Virus record (IMG/VR): IMGVR_UViG_2667527592_000002
Length of the DNA: 64,000 bases
Origin: a virus
Taxonomy: Duplodnaviria > Heunggongvirae > Uroviricota > Caudoviricetes
Direction: 5' to 3' (one strand)
In this document: positions 1,890-59,287 of the stretch, piece by piece
Layout: every line of letters begins with the position of its first letter
How positions within the stretch are numbered: position 1 is the first letter of the stretch
Position numbers and translations under genes: made by a program
Notes under the pieces: model-generated
Seen by the model: only the letters and a program-made list of their open reading frames with translations
Database searches by the model: none
Told to the model about the DNA's origin: nothing

Positions 1890-2282
1890 ATGGAACAAAT
1901 CAGCAGCGCAGAAATTGCGGATATCATGATCAGGGCTGACTGCTATCTGACAGTCACTGAAATTACCACTCTCGCCAAAGAAAAATACCCTCATCTCCAT
2001 GTTTCACGAGTAAGTGTAACTAACATCATTCGTCATTTTGTTCGTTCAAGCAGGGCAATCTGTGAGCTGGATGATCGTGTGTATCCACGAAAATACTGGC
2101 TACATGGTCTGAACGGATATCAGTTCAAGGTGCGCGGGCGCACGCCTGAATACGGTAGCTTACTGGTTAAAAACTGTAGCAGGAAATCAGTCGAACAGGC
2201 GCGAAAAGAGCAACGAGAGCTGGTGGACATGGCGAATAAGCTGTGGAATGCCGCCGTTAAAAAGCGTGGTGTTGCTTTATGA
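1890..2282 (+). CDS. hypothetical protein (130 aa)
   Basis: ORF track; stop overlaps pacA-like start (ATGA). Confidence 0.5.
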   Translation: MEQISSAEIADIMIRADCYLTVTEITTLAKEKYPHLHVSRVSVTNIIRHFVRSSRAICELDDRVYPRKYWLHGLNGYQFKVRGRTPEYGSLLVKNCSRKSVEQARKEQRELVDMANKLWNAAVKKRGVAL

Positions 2283-3643
2283 GTCTGGTTAATTGGGAGG
2301 AGCACCGCGCCCGCTTTATAGCGTTGCGTGAAGAAAAAGGGATCACTGTAAAGGAATACTGTGAGGAGCATGGCCTTAGCTTCAATACAGCCAGAAAGCA
2401 TCTCAATATGAAAAAAAATGAGGTGCGGTCGCAGGTAAAGACAACAAAAAAAAGCACCAAATCACCTGAAAAAAAACGGGCGGGAAGAGCAACAAAAAAG
2501 CTGGAAGAGGGTGCAGAAAAAACAAAATTTACAGAAATTGACAATTCGCAGGGTGCAGGTTCTTTCCGAAGTATGCCAAGAAAGAAAACTTCGGATCATG
2601 AAAGTAATTCCAATAATAACAATGAGATAAAAGAATCTGTCAGGAGATCATTGCGCGAAAAAATGGCGAAAATGATCCCCGAAGAAGATAAAAGCGCCCC
2701 AAAAATTGAGGGATCTTCAGCAATGATCCCTGGCGGTGCTGTGCAACGTGCCACATTGCCCACTACGAATGTGGCTCGCGACATGATGAAGAACGGCGCA
2801 GAAGAACACCTGCGGTTAGCAATTCAAATGGCGCAAGAGCGCGCACTTCAGTATCAAAGCATTGTTGATCAGGAGGCCGAACGTCTACAGGCGGAAATAG
2901 ACGCCTTGGGCGATAAAGAGCCAGAAGGAATGCACCCTGGGCAGCGCCTTCTCGGTCTAATCAGTGACGCGGCCTACTACATGAATGATTTTATCAGTAG
3001 GTTGGCAGCTATATATCAGTCCGAACAAAAGCTGCGACAGGGGGATGAAAAGCTTCGTCAGAGCGCTCGCCAGCAAGCATTCAAAGAGGCTGAGGCCAGA
3101 GAAAAACTCGAATTAGCACGCCTACAGGCCGAACAGCGTGGCAAAGAGATTGAATATCGCATTGGCGCTGACGCACGCGCTGCCAGAGTTATCGCCGCCG
3201 CTATACGTATGCGTGAGCGCGAGGAACTGGATGATATCGGTGTTGCTGAATACATCGAGCGCCAGGGGGTCAGCGTCCCGGCTATCCTCGCGGCGCGCGC
3301 GGCGAAAGCTATCACTCTTCTCGAACCACCTGTTTCTGACGTCAATGATGTTGATGATGAACAGCTGGACAAAGAGGCAAGGGAGTTTGCAACGCTTCAG
3401 GCTAACCATCCGCAATGGCTGGCAGAGCGCCGGGCGGATGTGGCAACCATTGTTGAAGAATTGGGGTGCGGAGATTACGACCGCAATGGCGAGCGTAAAG
3501 CTGGAGAATTCGAGGCCAGCGACGAAGAGCTGGATATTGACCCTTCGGCAACGGCTGAAATTTACGGTGATTATGATGCATCTGATGCAGGGTATGACGC
3601 CGGAGATGATGATATCGCGATAGAACCGCCGGAGGATGATTAA
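2279..3643 (+). CDS. putative terminase small subunit (PacA-like), acidic C-terminus
   Basis: Immediately upstream of and overlapping the large terminase; N-terminal HTH-like segment; internal GATC cluster; assignment by position, not by recognised sequence. Confidence 0.45.
   Translation: MSLVNWEEHRARFIALREEKGITVKEYCEEHGLSFNTARKHLNMKKNEVRSQVKTTKKSTKSPEKKRAGRATKKLEEGAEKTKFTEIDNSQGAGSFRSMPRKKTSDHESNSNNNNEIKESVRRSLREKMAKMIPEEDKSAPKIEGSSAMIPGGAVQRATLPTTNVARDMMKNGAEEHLRLAIQMAQERALQYQSIVDQEAERLQAEIDALGDKEPEGMHPGQRLLGLISDAAYYMNDFISRLAAIYQSEQKLRQGDEKLRQSARQQAFKEAEAREKLELARLQAEQRGKEIEYRIGADARAARVIAAAIRMREREELDDIGVAEYIERQGVSVPAILAARAAKAITLLEPPVSDVNDVDDEQLDKEAREFATLQANHPQWLAERRADVATIVEELGCGDYDRNGERKAGEFEASDEELDIDPSATAEIYGDYDASDAGYDAGDDDIAIEPPEDD
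2594..2728. other. GATC cluster (5 sites in 135 bp), candidate pac-type packaging site
   Basis: GATC at 2594, 2646, 2674, 2712, 2725, mostly as TGATC[CT] hexamers; P1 pac lies within pacA and is built from Dam-methylated TGATC[AG] hexamers. Confidence 0.35.
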
Positions 3644-5151
3644 TGGCTGGCGGGCGCAAGATTAAATGCGTCACCAGCGATCCACGCTGGCGCGATATGG
3701 TAATCAAATACCGCTACAACTTTACCCAGGCTGTTGTCGATATTTTTGGGATGTTCCCCTCCCACCAGCAGCAGCAGATCATTCAGTCAGTGCAGGAAAC
3801 GGGGAGTAGGACGACCGTCACGTCCGGACACGGAACGGGGAAGTCGTCCCTTACCGCGATGTTGCTGTTGATTTTTATGATCCTGTTCCCCGATGCCCGT
3901 GTCATCATTGTTGCTAACAAGATAGGCCAGGTAAAAACAGGCGTATTCAAATACGTTAAACAGTATTGGGCGAATGCAGTTAAGCGTCATGGGTGGTTGC
4001 AGACCTATTTTGTCCTCTCTGACACCATGTTTTATGAGCGCTCCCGTAAGGGGATTTGGGAAGTTCTCTGCAAAGGTTATCGACTCGGCAACGAAGAAGC
4101 GCTGGCGGGGGAACACGCGGCACATTTGCTTCTAATTCTGGACGAAGCATCTGGTATATCTGATAAGGCGATCGGCGTAATGACCGGTGCTCTTACTGAA
4201 GAAGATAACCGGATGTTGATGCTATCCCAGCCAACAAGGCCAAGTGGTTATTTCTACGATTCGCACCATTCTCAAGCAAAAACCCCAGACAACCCGAAAG
4301 GGATCTGGACAGCAATTGTTCTTAACTCGGAAGAATCACCGTTCGTCACACCACAATTCATCAAGCAGAAGCTTCTGGAATATGGCGGGCGCGATTCTAT
4401 TGAGTACATGGTCAAGGTGCTTGGTCAGTTCCCACGAGAAATTAACGGCTATTTGCTTGGTCGTGATGAATGCGATCGCGCTGCTCGCCGCAAGGTGTTG
4501 TTGGAGAAAAACTGGGGATGGGTGGCAACGGCTGACGTTGGTAATGGGCGAGATAAGTCGGTCCTCAACATCTGCAAAGTATCTGGTCACAGGGATAAGC
4601 GGCGCGTTGTTAACTTTAAGGTAATGGAGATGCCTGGCACTATGGACCCATTGGCCTTTGCTGACTTCATATATAACGAATGTACGCCGGAAAAATACCC
4701 GAATATAACAATCGCGGTTGATGCTGATGGTTTTGGTTCTGATACGTGTGCGCAGTTGGTGCGTCGTGGTGCGAACCCGGTACGTATTCGGTGGGGAAAA
4801 CCCATGTTTGCGAACAAAGACAGGGAGCGATTTGTTAATCAGCGTGCCTACGCAAATATTATGGCGCGTGATGCCATAAAGTCAGGGCGTATGCGGATAG
4901 ACAGTGACCCTAAAACGGCAGAGCAAGCGTCAAAAATCCCCTTTTTACTGAATGAAGAAGGGAAAATGGCGATGATGCGCAAAGAGCACATGCGGCAAAA
5001 GCTAAACATCAAATCGCCTGACCGATGGGATACCTACTGCTTCACTATGCTGGTGGACTATGTGCCTGCTAATGAAGATATTGGTGCCGAAATGGCAACT
5101 TTCCGAGATCAGGTTCTGGCGGATATCGAAATGCCGGATCTGGATATATAA
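3643..5151 (+). CDS. terminase large subunit (PacB-like)
   Basis: 502 aa; Walker A SGHGTGKS, Walker B LLLILDEAS, C-terminal acidic nuclease-like region; start overlaps pacA stop. Confidence 0.7.
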   Translation: MAGGRKIKCVTSDPRWRDMVIKYRYNFTQAVVDIFGMFPSHQQQQIIQSVQETGSRTTVTSGHGTGKSSLTAMLLLIFMILFPDARVIIVANKIGQVKTGVFKYVKQYWANAVKRHGWLQTYFVLSDTMFYERSRKGIWEVLCKGYRLGNEEALAGEHAAHLLLILDEASGISDKAIGVMTGALTEEDNRMLMLSQPTRPSGYFYDSHHSQAKTPDNPKGIWTAIVLNSEESPFVTPQFIKQKLLEYGGRDSIEYMVKVLGQFPREINGYLLGRDECDRAARRKVLLEKNWGWVATADVGNGRDKSVLNICKVSGHRDKRRVVNFKVMEMPGTMDPLAFADFIYNECTPEKYPNITIAVDADGFGSDTCAQLVRRGANPVRIRWGKPMFANKDRERFVNQRAYANIMARDAIKSGRMRIDSDPKTAEQASKIPFLLNEEGKMAMMRKEHMRQKLNIKSPDRWDTYCFTMLVDYVPANEDIGAEMATFRDQVLADIEMPDLDI

Positions 5152-5170
5152 AGCCCCGCGATGCGGGGCC
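5152..5170. terminator. hairpin between convergent genes (GCCCCGC-GAT-GCGGGGC)
   Basis: 7-bp GC stem; T/A-rich run follows on the minus strand, so mainly terminates the 5179..6216 transcript. Confidence 0.5.
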
Positions 5171-5178
5171 GGTTGTGA

Positions 5179-6216
5179 TTACCAGAGCTTCGCGGCGTAC
5201 TGCGTTTGGGGGAATGTGTATCCGTAACGTTCTTCGATTGCTTTGCCGTATTTTTTACGAGCTTCATTCAGTTTAATGCCGGTCAGGTCGTCTCCAGAGG
5301 CCATCATTACCTCTAACAATTCCAGATCCATTTTATCCAGCCTTGCCATTGCTTCACGTGATGTACGTATCTTACGCTCAATGATATGGCGAATAGCCGG
5401 ATCGGCATCCTCCAGCATCTTAGCGGATTTCTGCTTAAGGCTTTCATTGCGAATATCGATGTTCCTTAAGATGTACGACTTCGCAACGTAGCTTGGCTGG
5501 TGTTTTTCCAGGTCACGAACACGATATAAGTTAAAATCGCCGAGAAGGCTGCAAGGTACCGATTCGACGCCAGAATAAATTGTAATGCTCCGGCGTTCAC
5601 CAACATTATTGACAACGGGGATCGTTGTCTTCGGTAGTCTTGCGAAAACCAATGCGCCATGTGCGCCAACTCTAAAGCGAGAAAGGGCATTGCTGCCTTC
5701 GATGTTTGTTGTCAGCACAACATCTGTATATGCCTCTTTACGCGCCCGGTAGATCTCGCCTTCAGGCTCAGCTTCAAAGAAGCGCTGTTCTTCTTCAAGA
5801 GCGCCTACGATTTGAGAAAAAACCCTATTTTTCAGGCTTTTCTTTATGATTTTGTCGTATTTTTTGAGCAATTGTTCACGTGTAAATGTACGTGTTGTTG
5901 TAGCGCTTTGCACAACAACATGCGTGCTTTGATTGGTGTCCTCAATGATGAATGGGATCGGAGAATATACAGACTCAACAATGTTCGACGCTTTGCCGTC
6001 GGCATCGCGGCACATGTCAACGAAGGCTTTCCATTCAGCAAGACATTTTTCAGCTTCTTCTAATATGTTTTGGTCATGCGTTAATGCAACATGGCGGAAT
6101 TCCTCGCCAGCATAACTGGTATCATGGAAAACAGAGTTTGCGACCACCAGCTCTTTCCACCGTTCAGCGGTTTGCAGGAACCGTTTGTACTCTTTCTCGA
6201 TCGACTTCTTACTCAT
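5179..6216 (-). CDS. hypothetical protein (345 aa); candidate lysogeny regulator by position
   Basis: ORF track; ATG with AGGA RBS; operator-like motif 16-33 bp upstream; sits between terminase and lox-cre. Confidence 0.55.
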   Translation of the reverse strand: MSKKSIEKEYKRFLQTAERWKELVVANSVFHDTSYAGEEFRHVALTHDQNILEEAEKCLAEWKAFVDMCRDADGKASNIVESVYSPIPFIIEDTNQSTHVVVQSATTTRTFTREQLLKKYDKIIKKSLKNRVFSQIVGALEEEQRFFEAEPEGEIYRARKEAYTDVVLTTNIEGSNALSRFRVGAHGALVFARLPKTTIPVVNNVGERRSITIYSGVESVPCSLLGDFNLYRVRDLEKHQPSYVAKSYILRNIDIRNESLKQKSAKMLEDADPAIRHIIERKIRTSREAMARLDKMDLELLEVMMASGDDLTGIKLNEARKKYGKAIEERYGYTFPQTQYAAKLW

Positions 6217-6231
6217 TATTCCTACTCGATT

Positions 6232-6249
6232 TAGTTTTCTAACATAAAA
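6232..6249 (+). promoter_or_regulatory. operator-like motif (TAGTTTTCTAACATAAAA)
   Basis: Recurring asymmetric motif; overlaps promoter region of 5179..6216. Confidence 0.45.
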
Positions 6250-24332: not shown

Positions 24333-24350
24333 GTTTTGTGTTAGAAAATC
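24333..24350 (-). promoter_or_regulatory. operator-like motif (minus strand GATTTTCTAACACAAAAC)
   Basis: In divergent promoter region between 24299 operon and ref-like gene. Confidence 0.45.
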
Positions 24351-35308: not shown

Positions 35309-35958
35309 AGCGTAGAGCGCAAATTGTTGGAACTGTGCACCCGGCAGGGCTTATGCGTGCTCAAGTCCGTGTTTTACCTGACTGGAATGGCGTTCCTGAT
35401 GACGATCTCCCATGGGCAGAATACCTGTTACCCATAGGTAACGCGTTTGTACCTACAGTAAAAGGCGACCTAGTATGGGTAGAGTTTCCTTATCTGGATG
35501 TTAATGGTCGAATTGATACCAGACGCCCAATGATAGTTGGCGCGGCTCAGGATGCGCCAGGCGGAATTCCAAACGTTGCACCAGAAGCATCTGGCAAAGG
35601 CAACGGCTGGACGCCGCCGGAAGTAGATGGAGCACCTCCCCGCCCCCAAATCTCAGCAACGAAAGACTTCGTTATTCACCGCAACAATATTCTTGAAGTA
35701 CGAACTGCTGGTGGCGGCTATGAAATTGCCAATACGGCAGCTGGCTCAAGGATTGGCATGAATGAGTCCGGGCAGATATATATCATTGGTCCGGCTGATG
35801 TAATCGTGAATGCAGGAGGGAGTGTTAACGTCAAATCAGCCAACAACATCAATGTTAATGGGGAAAATATAGCTGTCACCGCTAACGGGGACATAGCTTT
35901 CAAGGCAGGAGGAACCTTTCAGGCCACTGCTGGCAACTTCGATTTCAAGAAAGGATAG
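35305..35958 (+). CDS. baseplate spike protein (gpV-like OB domain plus beta-helix repeats)
   Basis: N-terminal VGTVHP ... DLPWAEYLLPIG ... GDLVWVEFPYLD; Gly/Asn/Val-rich C-terminal repeats. Confidence 0.55.
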   Translation: MKRRAQIVGTVHPAGLMRAQVRVLPDWNGVPDDDLPWAEYLLPIGNAFVPTVKGDLVWVEFPYLDVNGRIDTRRPMIVGAAQDAPGGIPNVAPEASGKGNGWTPPEVDGAPPRPQISATKDFVIHRNNILEVRTAGGGYEIANTAAGSRIGMNESGQIYIIGPADVIVNAGGSVNVKSANNINVNGENIAVTANGDIAFKAGGTFQATAGNFDFKKG

Positions 35959-35968
35959 AAAACGCACC

Positions 35969-36010
35969 CATTTGTGTTAGATAATTAACATGCATTTTCT
36001 AACACAAATG
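35969..36010. promoter_or_regulatory. inverted pair of operator-like motifs (13-bp perfect arms CATTTGTGTTAGA / TCTAACACAAATG)
   Basis: Arms 16 bp apart; right arm ends 8 bp before rdgC start. Confidence 0.5.
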
Positions 36011-36017
36011 GTGAGAC

Positions 36018-36923
36018 ATGAGATCAGTCGCTTTCAAAAATATCTTCATCTATCGTCTTTCACGCGAAGTTAACTGGGATACCGCAGAAGTAAATGCTGC
36101 CCTTAGCAAGTTTGTGTTTACCCCATGCGGTTCTCAGGATATTGCTAAAGCTGGTTGGACCCCCGTCCTTGGCGACAACCTCACCCATGAATACAAGGGT
36201 TTTCTTCTGATACAGCATAAACGAGAGGAAAAAATCCTACCTTCTCAAGTGCTCAAAGAAGAGCTACAGAAAAAAATCCTGAAACTTGAAGAAGAACAAG
36301 ACAGAAAGCTGAAGAAGACCGAAAAAGATTCGCTGAAGGATGAAGTGCTTCACTCTCTTCTTCCTCGTGCTTTCACGAGAAAATCAGTCGCTAAAATCCT
36401 GATAGACCGAAGCAATCATCTGGTTTTTGTCGAGGCGAGCAGTGCTAAAAAAGCAGAGGATCAGCTGGCTTTGTTACGGAAATCTCTTGGCAGCTTGCCC
36501 GTTGTCCCCTTCTCTCCGAAAGACCCATTAGAACTGACCATCACTGGCTGGATTAAAAATGGCTTCCCGAACGGTTTCCGTGCCGGTGAGGAAGCGACCT
36601 TAAAAGCATTGCTTGATGATGGCGGCGCGGTCCGCTGCAAAAAAGTGGACCTGCTATCCGACGAGATCATGAGTCATATAGAAGCTGGTAAGGTTGCAAC
36701 CACAGTTGCGGTTAACTGGCAAGACCGTGCATTTTTCAGACTGAATGACGATATGAGTATCAAGGCTTTGTCGTTCAGCGACGAATTGTACGACCAGAAC
36801 GACGATATTGATCGAGAGGATGTTGCTCAACGATTTGACGCTGACTTTATCCTGTTTACTGCTGAATTATCAGCGATGTTCACTTCGCTGGTGGAGGCCG
36901 TTGGTGGTGAAGCAGAACGTTAA
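36018..36923 (+). CDS. rdgC: recombination-associated protein RdgC
   Basis: Collinear with E. coli RdgC as I recall it: [45 protein letters not shown]. Confidence 0.85.
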
Positions 36924-36936
36924 CAATAGACCTCTT

Positions 36937-37587
36937 ATGGTGAGTCTTTGTGATTTCACGGGGAAAATGGTCGCCCCCTGGCTGGAGCATGGTATAGATG
37001 CTGTTATCGTCGATCCACAACACGCAAAGACCACAGATGAGCTGATGCAATCAGGCGCAGTTCTGACACGTATCAGTGCGATTATCGATAGTGATGAAGT
37101 TTATGCTTTTCTCCGAAATAATTTACAACGTATTGTGTTTTTAGCTGGTTTTCCGCCGTGCACGGACCTTGCTGTTTCCGGTGCGCGCTGGTTTGCACAT
37201 AAGGCTGACAAAGATCCGGTTTTCCAGTTCAAAGCGATGCAAGTCGTCTGGCAGTGTTACGACATTGCAAAGATGATTGGTTGCCCGTACATGATTGAAA
37301 ACCCGGTCAGCCAAATATCGACATTCTGGCGTAAACCTGATCACATCTTCCATCCTTACCACTTCACTGCATATTGCAAGGAAGACAATTACACCAAAAA
37401 AACATGCCTCTGGAGCGGGCAGGGCTTTGTCATGCCTGATGCCCTAATGGACGAATCATTAGGCAAGCCAGATAACAGAATCCATACCGCGCCACCTGGG
37501 CCTGAAAGGGCTAATTTTCGAAGTGCTACTCCGAATGGATTCGCAAAAGCAGTTTTCGAAGCAAATAAGGGGGTGCTCTATGAGTAA
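36937..37587 (+). CDS. short DNA (cytosine-5) methyltransferase-like protein
   Basis: GFPPC (PC catalytic motif), MIENPV (ENV motif); only 217 aa, no obvious target-recognition domain. Confidence 0.45.
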   Translation: MVSLCDFTGKMVAPWLEHGIDAVIVDPQHAKTTDELMQSGAVLTRISAIIDSDEVYAFLRNNLQRIVFLAGFPPCTDLAVSGARWFAHKADKDPVFQFKAMQVVWQCYDIAKMIGCPYMIENPVSQISTFWRKPDHIFHPYHFTAYCKEDNYTKKTCLWSGQGFVMPDALMDESLGKPDNRIHTAPPGPERANFRSATPNGFAKAVFEANKGVLYE

Positions 37588-38485
37588 ATCTCTAGTAAGC
37601 ACAGCCATAGAAAGACATGATTCGATGGCGGAAATTAGCTATATGCGCACCATTCGGACTCCGGATGAATACGAGCGTCCGATCTTCAAATGGGTAGGCG
37701 GTAAATTTTCAGAGTTGCCTATAGTGCTTGAGCATCTACCACACGGTAAGCGGTTAATAGAACCATTCGTTGGTGGCGGTTCCGTATTTACGAATGCAGG
37801 ATTTCGCCACAACCTGCTTAATGATATTAACGGTGACTTGATTAACTTCTATCAGACATTGCAGCGAGAAAGACATTCTCTAGTCACGCTGTCATATAGT
37901 TTTTTCCAAAATTACAACAACGCTGACGCTTACCTCGAAGTGCGTGAGGCATTTAACAGAGGAAAGTATGACCAACTACATCATGCTGCTGCCTTTTTGT
38001 ACCTTAATCGGCACTGTTTTAATGGCGTAACACGGTACAACCAAAATGGCGAGTTCAACGTAGGGTATGGTAAATACAAAGCGCCCTACTTCCCACATGC
38101 AGAGATGGAGGCATTTTTGGCTGATGACGTACTCAAAAACACTTCCTTTGTATCAGGTGACTTTGCTGGCGTCATCGAGGCGGCTGGTGAAGGCGATGTG
38201 ATTTTTTGCGATCCGCCGTATGAACCGCTGCCGGATACAGAAGGGTTTACCAGTTATTCAGGAAATAGCTTCCGTTTCGACGAACAGAAACGGCTGGTAT
38301 CTCTATTGGTGGAAGCCCACCAGCGCGGCGCTAAGGTAGTGATTACAAATAGTGGTGCTCCAAACATCCGTGAACTATATGAAGGAAACGGGTTTAAAGT
38401 ACATCATATGGCAGCCAGACGGTCGGTTTCCTGCAAGGCGTCAACACGTGTAGTTGCTAACGATATAATTGCAATAATGAAGTAA
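37580..38485 (+). CDS. Dam-family DNA adenine methyltransferase
   Basis: KWVGGK, EPFVGGGSVF and DPPY motifs; start overlaps upstream stop. Confidence 0.85.
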   Translation: MSKSLVSTAIERHDSMAEISYMRTIRTPDEYERPIFKWVGGKFSELPIVLEHLPHGKRLIEPFVGGGSVFTNAGFRHNLLNDINGDLINFYQTLQRERHSLVTLSYSFFQNYNNADAYLEVREAFNRGKYDQLHHAAAFLYLNRHCFNGVTRYNQNGEFNVGYGKYKAPYFPHAEMEAFLADDVLKNTSFVSGDFAGVIEAAGEGDVIFCDPPYEPLPDTEGFTSYSGNSFRFDEQKRLVSLLVEAHQRGAKVVITNSGAPNIRELYEGNGFKVHHMAARRSVSCKASTRVVANDIIAIMK

Positions 38486-38486
38486 A

Positions 38487-38516
38487 AAACGCCGCAGTAG
38501 CGGCGTTTACTTTTTC
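38487..38516. terminator. bidirectional rho-independent terminator between dam-like and glnS
   Basis: AAACGCCGC-AGTA-GCGGCGTTT with T-runs on both strands. Confidence 0.6.
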
Positions 38517-38533: not shown

Positions 38534-40195
38534 TTAACCTAACTTCGCCCAGGTATCACGCAGCCCAACGGTGCGGTTAAATACCGGTTTTTCCGCCGTA
38601 GAATGGCGGCTGTCGAGGCAGAAATAACCTTCACGCTCAAACTGGAATGCTTTACCCGCTACCGCTTCTTTCAGCGACGGTTCAGCAAAGCCTTGTTTGA
38701 TCACCAGCGATTCCGGGTTAATCACCGACAGGAAATCATCCGCAGCACCTGGGTTCGGTACACTGAACAGACGGTCGTACAGGCGAATTTCAACCGGCAG
38801 CGCATGTGCCGCGCTCACCCAGTGAATAACGCCTTTCACTTTACGACCATCTGCCGGATCTTTGCTTAAGGTGTCGGCGTCATAAGTACAGAAGATGGTG
38901 GTGATATTGCCTTCGGCATCTTTCTCCACGCGTTCAGCCTTAATGACGTAAGCATTACGCAGACGCACTTCTTTACCCAGCACCAGACGTTTGTACTGCT
39001 TGTTAGCTTCTTCGCGGAAATCGGCGCGGTCGATCCAAATCTCACCGCTAAACGGCACCTGACGGCTACCCATTTCCGGTTTGTTTGGATGGTTCGGCAT
39101 GGTGACCATTTCGCCTTCGCCCTGGTAGTTTTCGATAACCAGTTTCACCGGATCGATAACCGCCATTGCGCGCGGGGCATTTTCGTTGAGATCTTCACGG
39201 ATGCAGGATTCCAGCGACGCCATCTCAATGGTGTTGTCCTGCTTGGTCACGCCGATGCGTTTGCAGAACTCACGAATAGAAGCCGCAGTGTAACCACGAC
39301 GACGCAGACCGGAAATGGTCGGCATACGCGGGTCATCCCAGCCTTCAACGTGCTTGTCGGTCACCAGCAGGTTCAGCTTACGCTTGGACATCACGGTGTA
39401 TTCCAGATTCAGGCGCGAGAATTCGTACTGGCGCGGGTGAACAGGAATGGTGATGTTGTCCAGTACCCAGTCATACAGACGACGGTTGTCCTGGAACTCA
39501 AGCGTACACAGAGAGTGCGTAATACCTTCCAGCGCATCGCTGATGCAGTGGGTGAAGTCGTACATCGGGTAGATGCACCACTTGTTGCCAGTCTGGTGGT
39601 GTTCAGCAAACTTAATACGGTACAGCACCGGGTCGCGCATCACGATAAACGGCGAAGCCATGTCGATTTTCGCACGCAGGCAGGCTTTACCTTCTTCAAA
39701 ACCACCGGCACGCATTTTTTCGAACAGCGCCAGGTTCTCTTCAACGCTGCGGTCGCGGTACGGGCTGTTTTTACCCGGCTGCGTCAGGGTGCCGCGGTAT
39801 TCGCGGATCTGTTCCGGCGTCAGTTCGTCAACATACGCCAGGCCTTTGTTGATCAGTTCAACAGCATAGGCATGGAGTTTGTCAAAATAATCGGAGGAGT
39901 AACGGATGTTGCCAGACCAGTGAAAACCTAACCATTCAACGTCGTTTTTAATCGACTCAACGTACTCGATATCTTCTTTTACCGGGTTAGTGTCGTCGAA
40001 ACGCAGGTTGCACTGGCCTTTATAGTCCTGGGCGATCCCGAAGTTCAGGCAGATAGATTTCGCATGACCAATATGCAGATAGCCATTCGGTTCCGGCGGG
40101 AAACGGGTATGTACTGTGGTGTGCTTACCACTGGCCAGATCTTCATCGATGATCTGACGAATAAAGTTAGTCGGGCGGGCTTCTGCCTCACTCAT
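38534..40195 (-). CDS. glnS: glutaminyl-tRNA synthetase
   Basis: 553 aa; near-identical to E. coli GlnRS from memory ([17 protein letters not shown]...; HIGH in YLHIGHAKS; MSK in VMSKRKL). Confidence 0.95.
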
Positions 40196-55504: not shown

Positions 55505-58500
55505 ATGGATATCAGCCCGTTAGCGACGTTGAACAATTACCGCAATGGCGAGCACTCCATATGTCAAAAGCCCTGGAAGAAAAATACAAAGCTCAAGCCG
55601 GGAAACGTTGATCGCGCTGGTAAAAGAGAGGTTATTTTGAAAGAAAATAAAGACCGTATCGCAATAATTGACGCTATTCAGGAAGCGAGCACAAACGAAC
55701 TTAAAGCTCTTGCTGAGGTAAAAGACGCCATTCTTTCTGGGGCAAGCACCATAACTCAACAGGACGAAAGGCAAGGCAGAGTTAGCAACAGACTATCACG
55801 CAGGCGTAAAGACTACGAGCAAAGTACATCTGATAGCGTTAGAGATGTCCAAACTAACCCATATAAAAAACGTCTCCCTGCTAAAAAGGAGAGGGCACCG
55901 ATAAACCAAACCGTGGACCGCTCTATCGTTGCAACGAACACACCAGAAAGTGTTCGTTCTGTGCAATCACGTCAGAACATCCGAAAATCGGACGGTTCTA
56001 TACCGGTAGCTGCTAATTCAACTCCTCTTGAACCACAATCCCCCCAAAGTCTAAAAGGCCCGCTGCGGGATAGTAATGGACGTTTTGTATCCCAGAAAAG
56101 CAATGAGGATGTAGCCAGAAAAAAAGAACTGCAGAACGCACGTAAAGCCGACGCAAAATTACAAGCTGGCTTTCTCAGAAAGCTGGGTTCCATTATGGGG
56201 GTAGATGGCAATCAGTCTTCCAGTGAAGAGTCTTTAACAAATGCAGCTGGTGTCGGTGCTGGTGGGCCGTTATGGATGGCAGCTCGTGGCATGTACGACA
56301 TAACTAAAGAGATCACAGGTAAAGCAGAATCTCTTAAAGAATGGGTAGAAAAGGGGAAAAAAGAAACATCAACCTCGAAAGCGATATCACCAGTAATTAC
56401 TTATCCGGCGGCGGTGAATTCTCAAAAAGCAACATCTGCAAAAGCGTTCAATAACGCTGTTGAGACAAAATCCGCACAAGCAGTAGAAGAGCAAACCAAA
56501 ATCCTTCAGACCAATGACAACAAAATAATTGATGGTCTGGAAAATGTTTCTGACGAGATAGTTAAGCTTCGGAAATCAGTGTCTTCTGGAAATAAGTTCG
56601 GCTTAAGTGATCTCTGGAAAAATCGAGCAAGCAGAAGAAATAAAATCAATATTGGTGATCAGACGGGAAAAAATAAACGGAACAAATCGAAAAGGAAAGG
56701 CCGCAATCTTGGGAAAAAAGCACTCTCCGCTGGCGAAAAAGTTGCTGCCGGTAGCGCTGCGGCTGGCACTGGTGTCGGAGCAGCAAAAGTAGTTAAAAAT
56801 AAGATCAGCAAACCCAAAGATGTAAGCACTATCAGCGATACATCAAAGGGGATTGCAAAGGAAACAAAAAATACTGCTAAGGCCGTGAAGTCAGCTGGTG
56901 TTGTGGCTGAAGATGCCACCATTAAAACCGGCGAAGCCATTGCAAAGAAAAAAACTGAATCTGTAGCCCTCAAAAGTGCAGCAAAAATAGGTGTTAAATC
57001 AGCAGCATCCACAGCGGCAAGAGCGGTCCCTATCATCGGTTCGCTGGCAATGGCTGGATATGACGCCATAGATGGTTACACAGATACAGAGGCGCAAAAG
57101 GCAGCCTTTGGTTTAAGTGACGATGATGCTGTATCCGAACAGAAAAAAACGGCTTACGCAACAGCTAATGTGCTCGATATGGGGGGCTTGGTGTCGGGCG
57201 CAACGAACTTGATAGGAAAAGGAATTTCTGCGCTAGGATTTGAAAGAGCAGGTGAAAAACTTCAGAATTTTGATACCGGAGATATTGCTCGTGGTGTTAA
57301 CGGCGCGGTAGATATCACCAAATCTGTTTTTGGTAGCCTTAAGGATACATTTTTATCCACTGACGAAAACACGAAACAAGTAAAAAAAGCTGTTGAAGAC
57401 GGCACCAAAAAAACTGTCGATGCGATTCATTCTCTAGGTGAACAATTACAAGGTGGGCGTAATGGCGAGGATGGAGTTGGTGAGCACGGATATACTTCTC
57501 CAACTGAATTTAGTGCACCTGCCAACAACACCATTGCAGCGGATCTGAATATTGGCGGCAGCAACGCTAAAAACCGCAATTACCGAAATAATAATCTCGG
57601 CAATCTTGTTTTTGCCAACCAGGAAGGGGCGACGCTGGAATCGCCAAATGCAAAAGGGGAACAACGTTTTGCGCGATTTAACACACCTGAAGAAGGGATC
57701 AGGGCACTGGCAAACCAGGTTTCCAGCTATTACAACGGCACCAGTGCCGCAGCGGGATATCAGAAGTTACAGACGGTATCCAGCATCATTTCAAAATGGG
57801 CACCGCCAAATGAGAACAATACTAACCAATATATTGATAACGTCAGTAAATATCTTGGTGTATCGCCTAATGAAAAAATAGATGTCAGCAACCCAGAGGT
57901 TATGACGCAATTAGTTCGTGCAATTGCGACGAAAGAAGGCGGAAATCCGGCAGTTAATAATGAGTTCATTAAGAATGCACTTGGAGCATTTAACACAAAC
58001 ACTGGTCGATGGGAGGGACAATTCTCTGACGAAACATTGGCGCGGATTAATAAAATTCAGAAAGAAAATGGTGGTCAGCTAATTGCCCGCGATTCGCAAT
58101 ATAGTGTTGGTCGCAAGGTAAAATATGCTAATGGAAAATCTCCAGCTCAACCAGTTTTGAATGCCGTTCCGACAGCAACACAACAGCCAATTGAGGTTGC
58201 ACAACATGCCCAGGCAGTCAAAAAGCCACAAAAAACAGGCAATCAATCGCAACCGATTAATCCAGAGAATGTTGATGTTAATACTGGCTCGCCATCAAGT
58301 CTGCTTGAGAGATTAATCGCTATAAATGACAGCGGGGTAGGTAATTTATTTGGAGGTGCGGCTACCAGCCTTGCTGGTACAAGCCTTGGCCTGATTAAGG
58401 ATTTTGCGTCGGCGACTTCGTTTGGTTCTATATCTTCGCTTTCCGAAAAAGCGAAAGGAATGGATCAGGCTCTTACTGAAAAGATATCCAGCTTAACCGG

Positions 58501-59287
58501 TAAATCTTTTGGATTTCAAAAAGCAAGCCAGGTAACTGATATAAGAGACGCTTTACAAAAAAGACCAAAAGCTGAACGCGATATGCCTTCAGTGGATCTT
58601 CTTTCCGGTGTTTCTTCGGCAAGTGAGAGTGAAAAAATCTCTGTAAACTCAAGGGGGATTCCAGTTTATGACAATGGATACAAGGTAATTGATGGTGAAG
58701 ATAAGGGGGTACTTGGCTCTTTGTTTGACTCGTCATTAACAGGTCTGAAACGTATTAGCTCTGCTGTGTTACCTGCAATTGGCGATAACGTTTCACGACT
58801 TATTGGTGGGGTAGATGGCACTGGCATTGTTAATGATTTGGTTTATCAGGCTACTGGGCAGAACTCAACAATTGCCAGGGCTATTAGCCCGCTTACCAGG
58901 AGCGCCGGTAGTTGGCTGAATAATGGTATTCAACAAACCGCAGATAGCATTAGAGGTATATCAAACGAAGCCAATAATGCCATATTTGGCTCTGCGTCAG
59001 CCGTGCAAGAACCTTTTCTTGCTATGCCACCACAGCTTCCTACTGTAACAGATCTCGCACGAAGCGGAATAAGACAACCATTAACTACTGACACTATAAA
59101 TAACGATCCTGCTATGTTGAAGGCGCTGGATAACATCTGCTCTATCCTGAACGACCTTCTGAATGTGAACAAGAACAATACAAAAGGCGATCCGGATAAG
59201 GTTGTCAAAACATCGCAGCCGCAACCGCGACCACGTGCTAGCACAACTATTAATGACCCGTCGCTGGATGCTCTGCTTGAGGATTAA
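55505..59287 (+). CDS. tail tape-measure-like protein (Sit-like), possible cell-wall hydrolase region
   Basis: 1260 aa, largest ORF, just upstream of baseplate genes; Ala/Gly/Lys-rich repeats; central NRNYRNNNLGNLVF... block. Confidence 0.55.
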   Translation: MDISPLATLNNYRNGEHSICQKPWKKNTKLKPGNVDRAGKREVILKENKDRIAIIDAIQEASTNELKALAEVKDAILSGASTITQQDERQGRVSNRLSRRRKDYEQSTSDSVRDVQTNPYKKRLPAKKERAPINQTVDRSIVATNTPESVRSVQSRQNIRKSDGSIPVAANSTPLEPQSPQSLKGPLRDSNGRFVSQKSNEDVARKKELQNARKADAKLQAGFLRKLGSIMGVDGNQSSSEESLTNAAGVGAGGPLWMAARGMYDITKEITGKAESLKEWVEKGKKETSTSKAISPVITYPAAVNSQKATSAKAFNNAVETKSAQAVEEQTKILQTNDNKIIDGLENVSDEIVKLRKSVSSGNKFGLSDLWKNRASRRNKINIGDQTGKNKRNKSKRKGRNLGKKALSAGEKVAAGSAAAGTGVGAAKVVKNKISKPKDVSTISDTSKGIAKETKNTAKAVKSAGVVAEDATIKTGEAIAKKKTESVALKSAAKIGVKSAASTAARAVPIIGSLAMAGYDAIDGYTDTEAQKAAFGLSDDDAVSEQKKTAYATANVLDMGGLVSGATNLIGKGISALGFERAGEKLQNFDTGDIARGVNGAVDITKSVFGSLKDTFLSTDENTKQVKKAVEDGTKKTVDAIHSLGEQLQGGRNGEDGVGEHGYTSPTEFSAPANNTIAADLNIGGSNAKNRNYRNNNLGNLVFANQEGATLESPNAKGEQRFARFNTPEEGIRALANQVSSYYNGTSAAAGYQKLQTVSSIISKWAPPNENNTNQYIDNVSKYLGVSPNEKIDVSNPEVMTQLVRAIATKEGGNPAVNNEFIKNALGAFNTNTGRWEGQFSDETLARINKIQKENGGQLIARDSQYSVGRKVKYANGKSPAQPVLNAVPTATQQPIEVAQHAQAVKKPQKTGNQSQPINPENVDVNTGSPSSLLERLIAINDSGVGNLFGGAATSLAGTSLGLIKDFASATSFGSISSLSEKAKGMDQALTEKISSLTGKSFGFQKASQVTDIRDALQKRPKAERDMPSVDLLSGVSSASESEKISVNSRGIPVYDNGYKVIDGEDKGVLGSLFDSSLTGLKRISSAVLPAIGDNVSRLIGGVDGTGIVNDLVYQATGQNSTIARAISPLTRSAGSWLNNGIQQTADSIRGISNEANNAIFGSASAVQEPFLAMPPQLPTVTDLARSGIRQPLTTDTINNDPAMLKALDNICSILNDLLNVNKNNTKGDPDKVVKTSQPQPRPRASTTINDPSLDALLED

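Follow-up and report, generated by a model that had tools for sequence, protein, structure and literature searches.

We propose that a D6-like phage-plasmid carries an orphan methylation module, which probably combines a free-standing, catalytically competent cytosine-5 (C5) DNA methyltransferase with a GATC-methylating Dam, and in which the C5 module has been replaced by comparison with the Dmt enzyme of phage P1. The module would consist of three overlapping, co-translated genes: rdgC, the gene of a minimal C5 DNA methyltransferase, and dam. The proposal is built on the structure of the genes and their synteny, the predicted fold, the conservation of catalytic residues, family membership and evidence of purifying selection.

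The locus and its existing annotation

The window, that is the whole stretch of 64,000 nucleotides analysed here, corresponds to a D6-like phage-plasmid related to P1. Many E. coli plasmids match it with 100% identity, and it shares 91.5% identity with phage D6, of which it represents a variant lineage. The element is present in 101 of the 5426 complete E. coli genomes, in every occurrence as a plasmid, and D6-like phage-plasmids are common in E. coli and Salmonella. At the locus, rdgC is followed by the short C5 gene, dam and then the convergent glnS. There is no restriction endonuclease gene next to the pair, since its neighbours are rdgC and glnS and no nuclease ORF was found between 35300 and 40200. 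The genes of the module and their junction are the following.

36018..36923, + strand: rdgC, first gene of the module (PF04381, 1.4e-101; phrog_724), counterpart of P1 hrdC
36907..37587, + strand: short C5 cytosine methyltransferase gene, 226 aa from a GTG or 216 aa from ATG 36937
37580..37587, + strand: start/stop overlap ATGAGTAA of 8 nt, with the dam ATG (37580) inside the stop region of the C5 gene
37580..38485, + strand: dam, N6-adenine DNA methyltransferase of 301 aa (PF02086, TIGR00571, phrog_116)

The C5 and Dam pair is already known, as it is annotated in phage D6 (MF356679). The products of D6 orf64 and orf63 are 91% and 97% identical to the C5 and Dam proteins of the window, respectively, and gene order and neighbours match, with rdgC upstream and glnS convergent downstream. 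In the annotation by Gilcrease and Casjens, orf64 is labelled 'putative DNA-cytosine methylase' and orf63 'site-specific DNA-adenine methylase, similar to C-term half of P1 dmt only'. A methylation module is also mentioned for a D6-like Salmonella plasmid (PMC6799933). On the E. coli plasmids, RefSeq/PGAP describes the short gene as a 'hypothetical protein' starting from the later ATG (36937) and flags Dam as a pseudogene 'missing N-terminus'; both calls are probably mis-annotations. Taken by itself, the locus is a correct and ordinary annotation point, already labelled in phage D6.

The short gene is under purifying selection and overlaps the start of dam

The initial annotation had reported a 217-aa protein. 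The ORF is real, but from ATG 36937 to the in-frame TAA (37585-37587) it encodes 216 aa. Moreover, this ATG is not kept, being replaced by GTT or GCG at the same position in phage D6 and in loci L014-L019. All D6-like loci share an in-frame GTG (36907 in the window), which follows GGAGG (36893-36897) and corresponds to the start used in the phage D6 annotation (226 aa). Because of this conservation, GTG 36907 is more likely to be the real start than ATG 36937, and the gene most likely extends from there to 37587, overlapping the rdgC stop codon (36921-36923) by 17 nt. Both the short C5 gene and dam are under purifying selection. For the short gene, the dN/dS ratio calculated against D6-like relatives is 0.08-0.13 and, together with the residues invariant in 64 representatives and the narrow length range of one segment described below, this value indicates that the ORF is neither a chance ORF nor a decaying fragment.

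The downstream gene had been described as a complete Dam-type (DPPY) adenine methylase, and our searches confirmed this description. Dam matches over its full length both PF02086 (2.5e-56, 191.7 bits for a cut-off of 22) and TIGR00571 (1e-73, 248.3 bits for a cut-off of 114.85), and occupies positions 510-777 of the 779 positions of the phrog_116 profile. An AdoMet motif of the FxGxG type (EPFVGGGSVF) is found near the N-terminus, and the catalytic motif can be read directly.

38210..38221, + strand: DPPY catalytic motif of Dam, residues 211-214

With the E. coli Dam equivalog model, the score is 239, below the cut-off of 441. In PADLOC, the top match is the orphan-methyltransferase model, with a Type II methyltransferase model as a close second. 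As stated in the initial annotation, the stop of the C5 gene overlaps the start of dam; ATGAGTAA is identical in two other D6-like loci (L011 and L014), and AAGGGGG lies 6-7 nt upstream of the dam start. This spacing and the overlap are consistent with a translational coupling of the two genes.

Upstream and downstream of the module, we observed putative control signals.

35956..36011, + strand: promoter-like site TAGAAA-18-GATAAT (consensus match), within the 59-nt gap that precedes rdgC
35968-35981 / 35998-36011: perfect 14-bp inverted repeat CCATTTGTGTTAGA, overlapping the promoter-like site
38487..38508, unstranded: bidirectional intrinsic terminator common to dam and the convergent glnS, with a 9-bp stem that includes 6 GC pairs and with runs of T on each strand

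The promoter-like site and the inverted repeat form a candidate control region for an rdgC-C5-dam operon. To determine whether this operon is controlled by a repressor, like Pdmt in P1, we scanned the window with the consensus of the P1 C1 operator, ATTGCTCTAATAAATTT, allowing up to 3 mismatches; no matches were found.

The short protein has a C5 catalytic core and almost no recognition domain

Conservation was assessed in a set of 64 representatives, each 34-51% identical to the window protein. Cys75, Glu121, Pro123, Lys154, Thr156, Trp159 and Gly201 (216-aa numbering) are invariant in 64 of 64. The main features of the protein are the following.

37153..37161, + strand: motif IV Pro-Pro-Cys, with the nucleophile Cys75 (216-aa numbering) or Cys85 (226-aa numbering), invariant in 64/64
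37297..37305, + strand: motif VI Glu-Asn-Pro (ENV equivalent), Glu121 and Pro invariant in 64/64
37420..37518, + strand: segment equivalent to the target-recognition domain (TRD), residues 162-194 (216-aa numbering), mostly loop according to the predicted secondary structure, with high pLDDT

The PC and ENV motifs of C5 methyltransferases had been reported in this protein. The PC motif is indeed present, GFPPCTDLAVSG within the ORF giving GFPPC with the Cys codon at 37159-37161. Motif VI is present as well, but it reads E-N-P-V (IENPVS, Glu codon at 37297-37299) and not literally ENV, and Asn122 is kept in 59 of the 64 representatives. At motif I, the protein has (L)xDxTG in place of FxGxG, and at motif VIII it has YTKKT(C)LW, with the invariant Lys154, in place of QxRxR.

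The TRD-equivalent segment is flanked by the strand YTKKTCLW, which resembles motif VIII, and by RSATP, which resembles motif IX, and it contains a subfamily-specific PDNRIH..PPGPERAN. Its length is 33 aa in the window protein and varies from 29 to 46 aa across the family (median 33). In the predicted structure, a separate small domain or TRD between motifs VIII and IX is absent and the loop packs on the catalytic domain; with only ~30 aa where a TRD would sit, the protein is too short for a normal one, as had been suggested. The predicted structure comprises an AdoMet-methyltransferase catalytic domain with C5-methyltransferase topology, and its best structural matches are all DNA C5 methyltransferases. 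Such a model supports the reading of the short protein as a C5-methyltransferase catalytic domain devoid of a normal TRD.

At the sequence level, PF00145 gave no match to the short protein at E up to 1, nothing was matched among the NCBIfam and PADLOC models, and the precomputed Pfam assignment was '-' for all of the 120 relatives listed. Searches of PDB sequences by phmmer and with a 64-sequence profile returned noise only and no methyltransferase. By hhalign, E values of 0.3 with the N-terminus of P1 Dmt and 0.14 with a Dcm+Dmt alignment were obtained, and in these non-significant alignments motifs I, IV, VI and IX fall in register. Cys75 is placed on the PC of Dcm and Dmt, although the similarity itself (E 0.14-0.3) is non-significant. 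Since profiles give no significant link, the C5 assignment rests on the predicted structure and the short motifs.

By comparison, M.HhaI, M.HaeIII and E. coli Dcm (PF00145) are 100-250 aa longer and possess their own TRD/small domain of at least 80 aa, which the short protein lacks. It also differs from canonical type II C5 methyltransferases in that their motifs I and VIII are not kept as such, no significant profile match is found and there is no partner nuclease here. The catalytic domains of DNMT3A and DNMT3B, which are the eukaryotic C5 methyltransferases with the smallest TRDs, share 10-15% identity with the short protein, a homology at most of superfamily level; they have ~280 aa, are oligomeric and are associated with regulatory domains.

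A homologous phage enzyme produces 5-methylcytosine

The short protein belongs to phrog_757, whose profile it matches over its full length (8.3e-78; residues 2-214 on positions 18-222 of 247). This is a phage family of several thousand members of ~220 aa with a C5 core and almost no recognition domain, for which Pfam, NCBIfam and PADLOC have no model. The family contains >6900 clusters at 90% identity and 1555 at 50%, and 1571 phage records. Among its members is the Dcm of phage K42/KarlJaspers (Bas06; bas06_0055), which is 37% identical over its full length (BLASTP E 2e-42) and whose C82, E128, K175 and K176 align exactly with C75, E121, K154 and K155 of the window protein. When expressed alone, K42/KarlJaspers Dcm generates 5-methylcytosine (5mC) on msDNA and triggers retron Ec86 (Eco1); its product matches a 5mC standard by LC-MS, and 5mC is not produced by the C82A/E128A/K175A/K176A mutant (bioRxiv 10.1101/2023.08.16.553469). 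In that study, the two Lys were given a substrate-binding role by structural overlay, and CCWGG specificity was assumed, not mapped, in a dcm+ host strain (bioRxiv 10.1101/2023.08.16.553469).

By analogy with this homolog, the window protein is probably active as a cytosine-5 methylase, and it would most likely use AdoMet and the motif IV Cys to form 5mC within a short sequence context. Neither protein has a separate TRD. However, K42/KarlJaspers Dcm has 236 aa versus 216-226 here and carries a 14-aa insertion before motif VIII relative to the window protein, and its gene is solitary, with a PF05869-type Dam 7 kb away, whereas the window gene is co-translated with a D12 Dam. Since the TRD-equivalent loops of the two proteins are unrelated in sequence, they need not have a common specificity. 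A study of phage TET and C5 methyltransferases (PMC8256090) was also considered as a source of specificity; its data are not transferable because those enzymes are Pfam-annotated and their membership in phrog_757 is not shown.

The pair is a counterpart of P1 Dmt with another C5 module

P1 Dmt is a single bifunctional polypeptide of 754 aa, whereas the window contains two ORFs in different frames, an arrangement that is conserved with its 8-nt overlap in D6-like loci. Dmt comes directly after hrdC and the window pair directly after rdgC, which is the equivalent position. Dam is 66% identical to residues 462-753 of Dmt, i.e. its C-terminal half, and its N-terminal 30 aa align gap-free to the Dmt interdomain linker. 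The shared order rdgC/hrdC-C5-Dam and this identity support the pair as the equivalent of P1 Dmt in both position and function, and two proteins would here do the job of one bifunctional enzyme. Dam is the ortholog of the C-terminal half of Dmt and, since Dmt is annotated as GATC-methylating, GATC is its most likely target.

The N-terminal half of Dmt is a canonical PF00145 domain of ~460 aa (1.6e-35), to which the short protein has no detectable similarity (BLASTP best E 0.9; hhalign E 0.3). For this reason, the sequences argue that the C5 module has been replaced by a non-homologous one and was not split off Dmt. The initial annotation had envisaged a split form of the P1-type enzyme. Such a split would mean that a stop or frameshift had broken dmt and that the short ORF was a remnant of its C5 domain. 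Although the pair occupies the genomic position of dmt, Dam begins with a linker-like stretch and PGAP considers its N-terminus missing, we regard such a breakage as very improbable: PF00145 matches the N-terminal half of Dmt and not the short protein, which is full-length in an independent family of thousands of ~220-aa members, and purifying selection on the short gene is strong. As no similarity to residues 1-460 of P1 Dmt was found by BLASTP, a split was rejected at the sequence level.

Partnering with adenine methylases and alternative readings

The short C5 gene has been joined to adenine methylases on several occasions. The rdgC-C5-dam trio is kept in relatives down to 63% identity (locus L007), and one protein of 563 aa (P0121) is a natural single-chain fusion of the short family to a D12 Dam. 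This fusion appears to be in a different context from rdgC-C5-dam. The ORF upstream of it (contig L010) does not look RdgC-like, as judged from its translation read beside the RdgC C-terminus. In another 7 viral loci, a gene for a PF05869-type or -like adenine methylase, unrelated to D12, overlaps the short C5 gene or lies directly against it. These joinings, the start/stop overlap and the presence in P1 of a different C5 domain joined to the same Dam lineage would agree with a two-subunit enzyme, equivalent to a bifunctional Dmt-type one but not covalently joined, in which the TRD-less C5 protein needs Dam for DNA binding or targeting, or else regulates Dam. We consider this unlikely. Indeed, at ~63 of the 80 sampled viral loci, in the Drexlerviridae phages and in a Pseudomonas prophage, no adenine methylase is found within 5 kb of the short gene, and the K42 homolog needs no partner for its activity on expression. 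In addition, the partners come from two unrelated adenine-methylase families, which is easier to reconcile with a co-expressed methylation module than with a specific interface between the proteins. The role of a non-catalytic specificity or regulatory subunit, also suggested in the initial annotation, is disfavoured because Cys, Glu and Lys of the catalytic site never vary, most relatives are solitary and a homolog makes 5mC by itself. Nevertheless, the tight coupling, the P0121 fusion and the fused Dmt may leave room for a functional cooperation between C5 and Dam. It is conceivable, with little probability in our opinion, that the co-translated Dam targets the TRD-less C5 enzyme and that the repeated joinings (P1 fusion, D12 overlap here, P0121 fusion, PF05869 overlap in other phages) reflect a two-activity enzyme with a composite target, which could be, for example, cytosines beside GATC in the pac region.

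Another reading concerns chemistry or substrate: the protein could transfer another group to C5, such as carboxymethyl, as CmoX does, or act mainly on single-stranded DNA or RNA. The sole demonstrated substrate of the family is retron msDNA, a stem-loop single-stranded DNA, and the TRD-equivalent loop is tiny. However, the product of the homolog behaved as 5mC by LC-MS, the structural matches point to DNA C5 methyltransferases and no TET/5mYOX, glycosyltransferase or Cx-SAM synthase gene adjoins the pair, so that we find this reading rather doubtful. A non-catalytic relic, whose degenerate fold would be kept only for binding AdoMet or DNA, is suggested by motifs I and VIII being off the canonical consensus and by the lack of a Pfam match; it is extremely improbable given the invariance of Cys75, Glu121 and Lys154 in 64/64, a dN/dS of ~0.1 and the loss of activity when the equivalent residues were mutated in the K42 homolog. 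As a separate point, it is conceivable, again with little probability, that no natural DNA C5 methyltransferase is smaller than the phrog_757 enzymes and that their target is very short or relaxed.

Possible roles of the module

The activity of this particular protein, GATC specificity, expression timing and biological role are inferred here. Comparison with P1 and with orphan methylases of other phages points to two likely roles. Methylation of phage DNA would likely blunt host restriction, at the price of exposing the phage to defences sensing 5mC, such as retron Ec86 or Type IV enzymes. The P1 and D6 lineages keep C5-plus-Dam at the same locus with unrelated C5 modules, which suggests that the presence of both marks is selected for. 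Should 5mC be made by the D6-type enzyme, plasmid carriage or induction could alter host methylomes, and sensitivity to 5mC-dependent defences could change.

In the other role, Dam methylation of a GATC-rich pac region would likely control packaging; P1 packaging requires Dam methylation of pac (PMC12707154). The terminase small-subunit gene of the window contains 5 GATC in 200 bp. Tetranucleotide counts over the window showed that GGCC, CTAG and GATC are depleted. Depletion of these three tetranucleotides is generic for enterobacterial elements.

Structure of the methylase locus

The reading frame that opens at ATG 36937 and closes with the TAA at 37585-37587, as seen in the sequence and in the ORF list, encodes 216 amino acids and not the 217 given in the initial annotation. 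It carries GFPPCTDLAVSG and IENPVS; of the two cytosine C5-methyltransferase motifs attributed to it, PC is indeed present (as PPC) but the supposed ENV is in fact ENP(V). The dam frame starts at ATG 37580, within ATGAGTAA, and ends at 38485, with DPPY at residues 211-214 of Dam, and the proposed overlap of the C5-like stop with the dam start amounts to 8 nt. Phage D6 and six other D6-like loci have GTT or GCG at codon 36937, and all of them keep a GTG in the same frame at 36907, preceded at nine bases by GGAGG. The D6 record annotates the gene from this GTG, and ATG 36937 is therefore probably not the true start. The short gene most likely covers 36907..37587 (226 aa), with a 17-nt overlap with the rdgC stop; residue numbers below follow the 216-aa form.

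We observed that rdgC, the short methylase gene and a complete dam overlap one another in an operon-like chain, and that both methylase genes are under purifying selection. The dN/dS of the short gene against D6-like relatives is 0.08-0.13, and the gene is therefore maintained by selection.

Features of the methylase locus
35968-36011: perfect 14-bp inverted repeat CCATTTGTGTTAGA, overlapping a promoter-like site that directly precedes rdgC
36018-36923, + strand: rdgC, counterpart of P1 hrdC
36907-37587, + strand: short methylase gene (most likely extent)
37580-38485, + strand: dam
38487-38508: bidirectional terminator at the end of the chain, common to dam and the convergent glnS
38534-40195, - strand: glnS, full-length glutaminyl-tRNA synthetase (553 aa), convergent to dam

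The glnS gene is a known cargo gene in all D6-like genomes (PMC6799933). The window has no match to the P1 C1 operator consensus with up to 3 mismatches. Further copies of the 11-mer core of the repeat, TTTGTGTTAGA, are present at 24335 and 45901, and copies with one mismatch at 6238 and 57989; those at 6238, 24335 and 45901 lie between listed ORFs and that at 57989 inside a 1260-aa ORF (55505-59287). The window holds six such sites in total, a number reached in none of 100 shuffles. The repeat is a candidate for an operator bound by a repressor or for an element of late promoters.

The short protein belongs to a phage family with a C5-methyltransferase fold

The short protein matches no Pfam, NCBIfam or PADLOC entry, and a PDB sequence search, profile search included, gave no match. 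PHROG 757 ('DNA methyltransferase') matches it end to end (8e-78). This is a large family (over 6900 clusters at 90% identity, 1555 at 50%) with matches in 1571 phage records, among them Drexlerviridae, rV5-like, Klebsiella, Vibrio, Campylobacter and Flavobacterium phages. We selected 64 full-length representatives (identity with the window protein 34-51%, median length 220 aa), in which Asp26, Cys75, Glu121, Pro123, Lys154, Thr156, Trp159 and Gly201 are invariant. The AlphaFold model built from them is very confident (pLDDT 96.7, pTM 0.92) and displays the C5-methyltransferase catalytic fold with conserved catalytic residues. In motif-level hhalign alignments to Dcm and Dmt, which are non-significant, LxDxTG falls on motif I, the catalytic PPC, containing Cys75, is in register with motif IV, ENP falls on VI and RSxTP on IX. 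Only 33 residues, predicted as a loop (29-46 in the family), separate YTKKTCLW, a motif VIII-like strand, from RSATP, too few to hold a normal target-recognition domain (TRD), as the earlier remark has it.

A characterised relative comes from a preprint on retron Ec86, in which escape mutants were isolated from phage K42, which is related to KarlJaspers/Bas06. Plasmid-borne expression of the K42 protein alone increased 5mC on the retron msDNA as measured by LC-MS, and that of its C82A/E128A/K175A/K176A mutant did not (bioRxiv 10.1101/2023.08.16.553469). KarlJaspers bas06_0055 (711 bp) aligns with the window protein over the full length (37% identity, E 2e-42), and its C82, E128, K175 and K176 align precisely with C75, E121, K154 and K155. 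Because of this match, with catalytic residues in register, we assign the window protein to an experimentally active family. The proposal that the C5-like part is a non-catalytic subunit is disfavoured by these conserved residues and by the 5mC made by a homolog expressed alone. Specificity is not transferable, since the CCWGG target of the K42 protein was assumed from the name Dcm and backed only by msDNA-site mutation in a dcm+ host (bioRxiv 10.1101/2023.08.16.553469), and the TRD-equivalent loop of Drexlerviridae is unrelated to the D6-subfamily loop PDNRIH..PPGPERAN.

Some matches have larger architectures. Two proteins of uncultured Caudovirales in BFVD, A0A6J5SE15 (1397 aa) and A0A6J5NPY6 (1126 aa), match the short C5 fold in fragment models (_1, _2); one is labelled 'Helicase/UvrB, N-terminal', and they are reminiscent of big methylase-helicase anti-restriction proteins such as P1 DarB. 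Family member P0197 (348 aa) has a C-terminal HNH_2 nuclease domain. P0244 (532 aa), fused to a Mu Gp48-like baseplate domain, and P0003 (305 aa), a gene call merging the RdgC C-terminus with the short methylase, may be gene-calling or assembly artefacts.

The methylase pair is a counterpart of P1 Dmt

In P1 the gene order is uhr, hrdC (RdgC family), dmt, and in the window it is rdgC, short gene, dam. P1 Dmt (754 aa) joins a canonical PF00145 C5 domain, in the N-terminal ~460 residues, to a C-terminal PF02086 Dam domain. Because the window Dam and Dmt 462-753 share 66% identity, without gaps through the interdomain linker, we consider the two Dam parts orthologous and the locus syntenic. The short protein, in contrast, has no detectable similarity to Dmt 1-460 (best BLASTP E 0.9; 64-sequence profile hhalign E 0.3), which rules out that it is a piece split off Dmt. 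The pair is a functional and positional counterpart of Dmt, which makes the initial interpretation partly right, but not a split form of it; its cytosine module is, by sequence comparison, a replacement by an unrelated one. Against the D6-like loci L014-L017, dS over 36018-38485 falls from ~1.7 for rdgC to 0.57 for the short gene and 0.17 for dam, and such sharp shifts indicate that recombination breakpoints lie inside or between the three genes.

A 3.3-kb region that includes the locus is 91.5% identical to Escherichia phage D6, a P1-related phage-plasmid. The pair is 100% identical in many ~90-kb E. coli plasmids; among 5426 complete genomes of E. coli, 101 have it, plasmid-borne in every case. 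GenBank labels the D6 genes 'putative DNA-cytosine methylase' and 'site-specific DNA-adenine methylase; similar to C-term half of P1 dmt only'; with this annotation and a characterised family member, novelty is low. In record NZ_CP027309.1 (4001-5549, equal to window 36937-38485), RefSeq/PGAP starts the short gene at the non-conserved ATG, as a 'hypothetical protein', and marks dam as a pseudogene 'missing N-terminus'; these calls are probably artefacts that arise when longer proteins of the Dmt type serve as reference.

Pairing with adenine methylases

We fetched 80 viral loci with relatives of the short protein and scanned them for adenine methylases. The row rdgC, short gene and D12 Dam occurs only in nine D6-like loci (at least 88% identity); the same trio is present on an 85-kb contig whose homolog is 63% identical. 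A phage Dam of the unrelated PF05869 type overlaps the short-gene start in five loci, L082, L085 and L088-L090 (~4400-5750), which belong to a 43-44%-identical subgroup; here a C5 gene is paired with an adenine methylase in a second, independent way. A PF05869-like ORF abuts the short-gene end in two loci and lies 1.5 kb upstream in one. P0121 (563 aa, metagenomic) is a true fusion of the short family with a D12 Dam.

In about 63 of the 80 loci no adenine methylase is detectable within 5 kb of the short gene. The gene is also solitary in PaulSarasin, KarlJaspers and one Pseudomonas prophage. From these counts the pairing is recurrent yet not obligatory and, since the D12 and PF05869 partners are also not homologous to each other, a co-expressed methylation module fits better than a dedicated heterodimer; a subunit model is improbable.

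Putative role of the module

Phage orphan methylases are usually proposed to give protection from host restriction. No nuclease gene is adjacent to the pair. The short enzyme would methylate cytosine at C5, with Cys75 as nucleophile and Glu121 protonating N3, and its 30-residue loop would read a short target; the window Dam would methylate GATC as P1 Dmt does. Methylation may carry a cost in exposing the phage to retron Ec86 and other systems that sense 5mC. Packaging in P1 depends on methylation of pac by Dam (PMC12707154). The densest GATC cluster of the window, five sites per 200 bp at 2594-2790, lies in the terminase small-subunit gene (ORF 2279-3643, PacA-like, phrog_1711) and is similar in this to the pac site of P1, which lies inside pacA and is regulated by Dam. 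Given this cluster and the P1 requirement, it is plausible that the window Dam serves packaging in a similar way.
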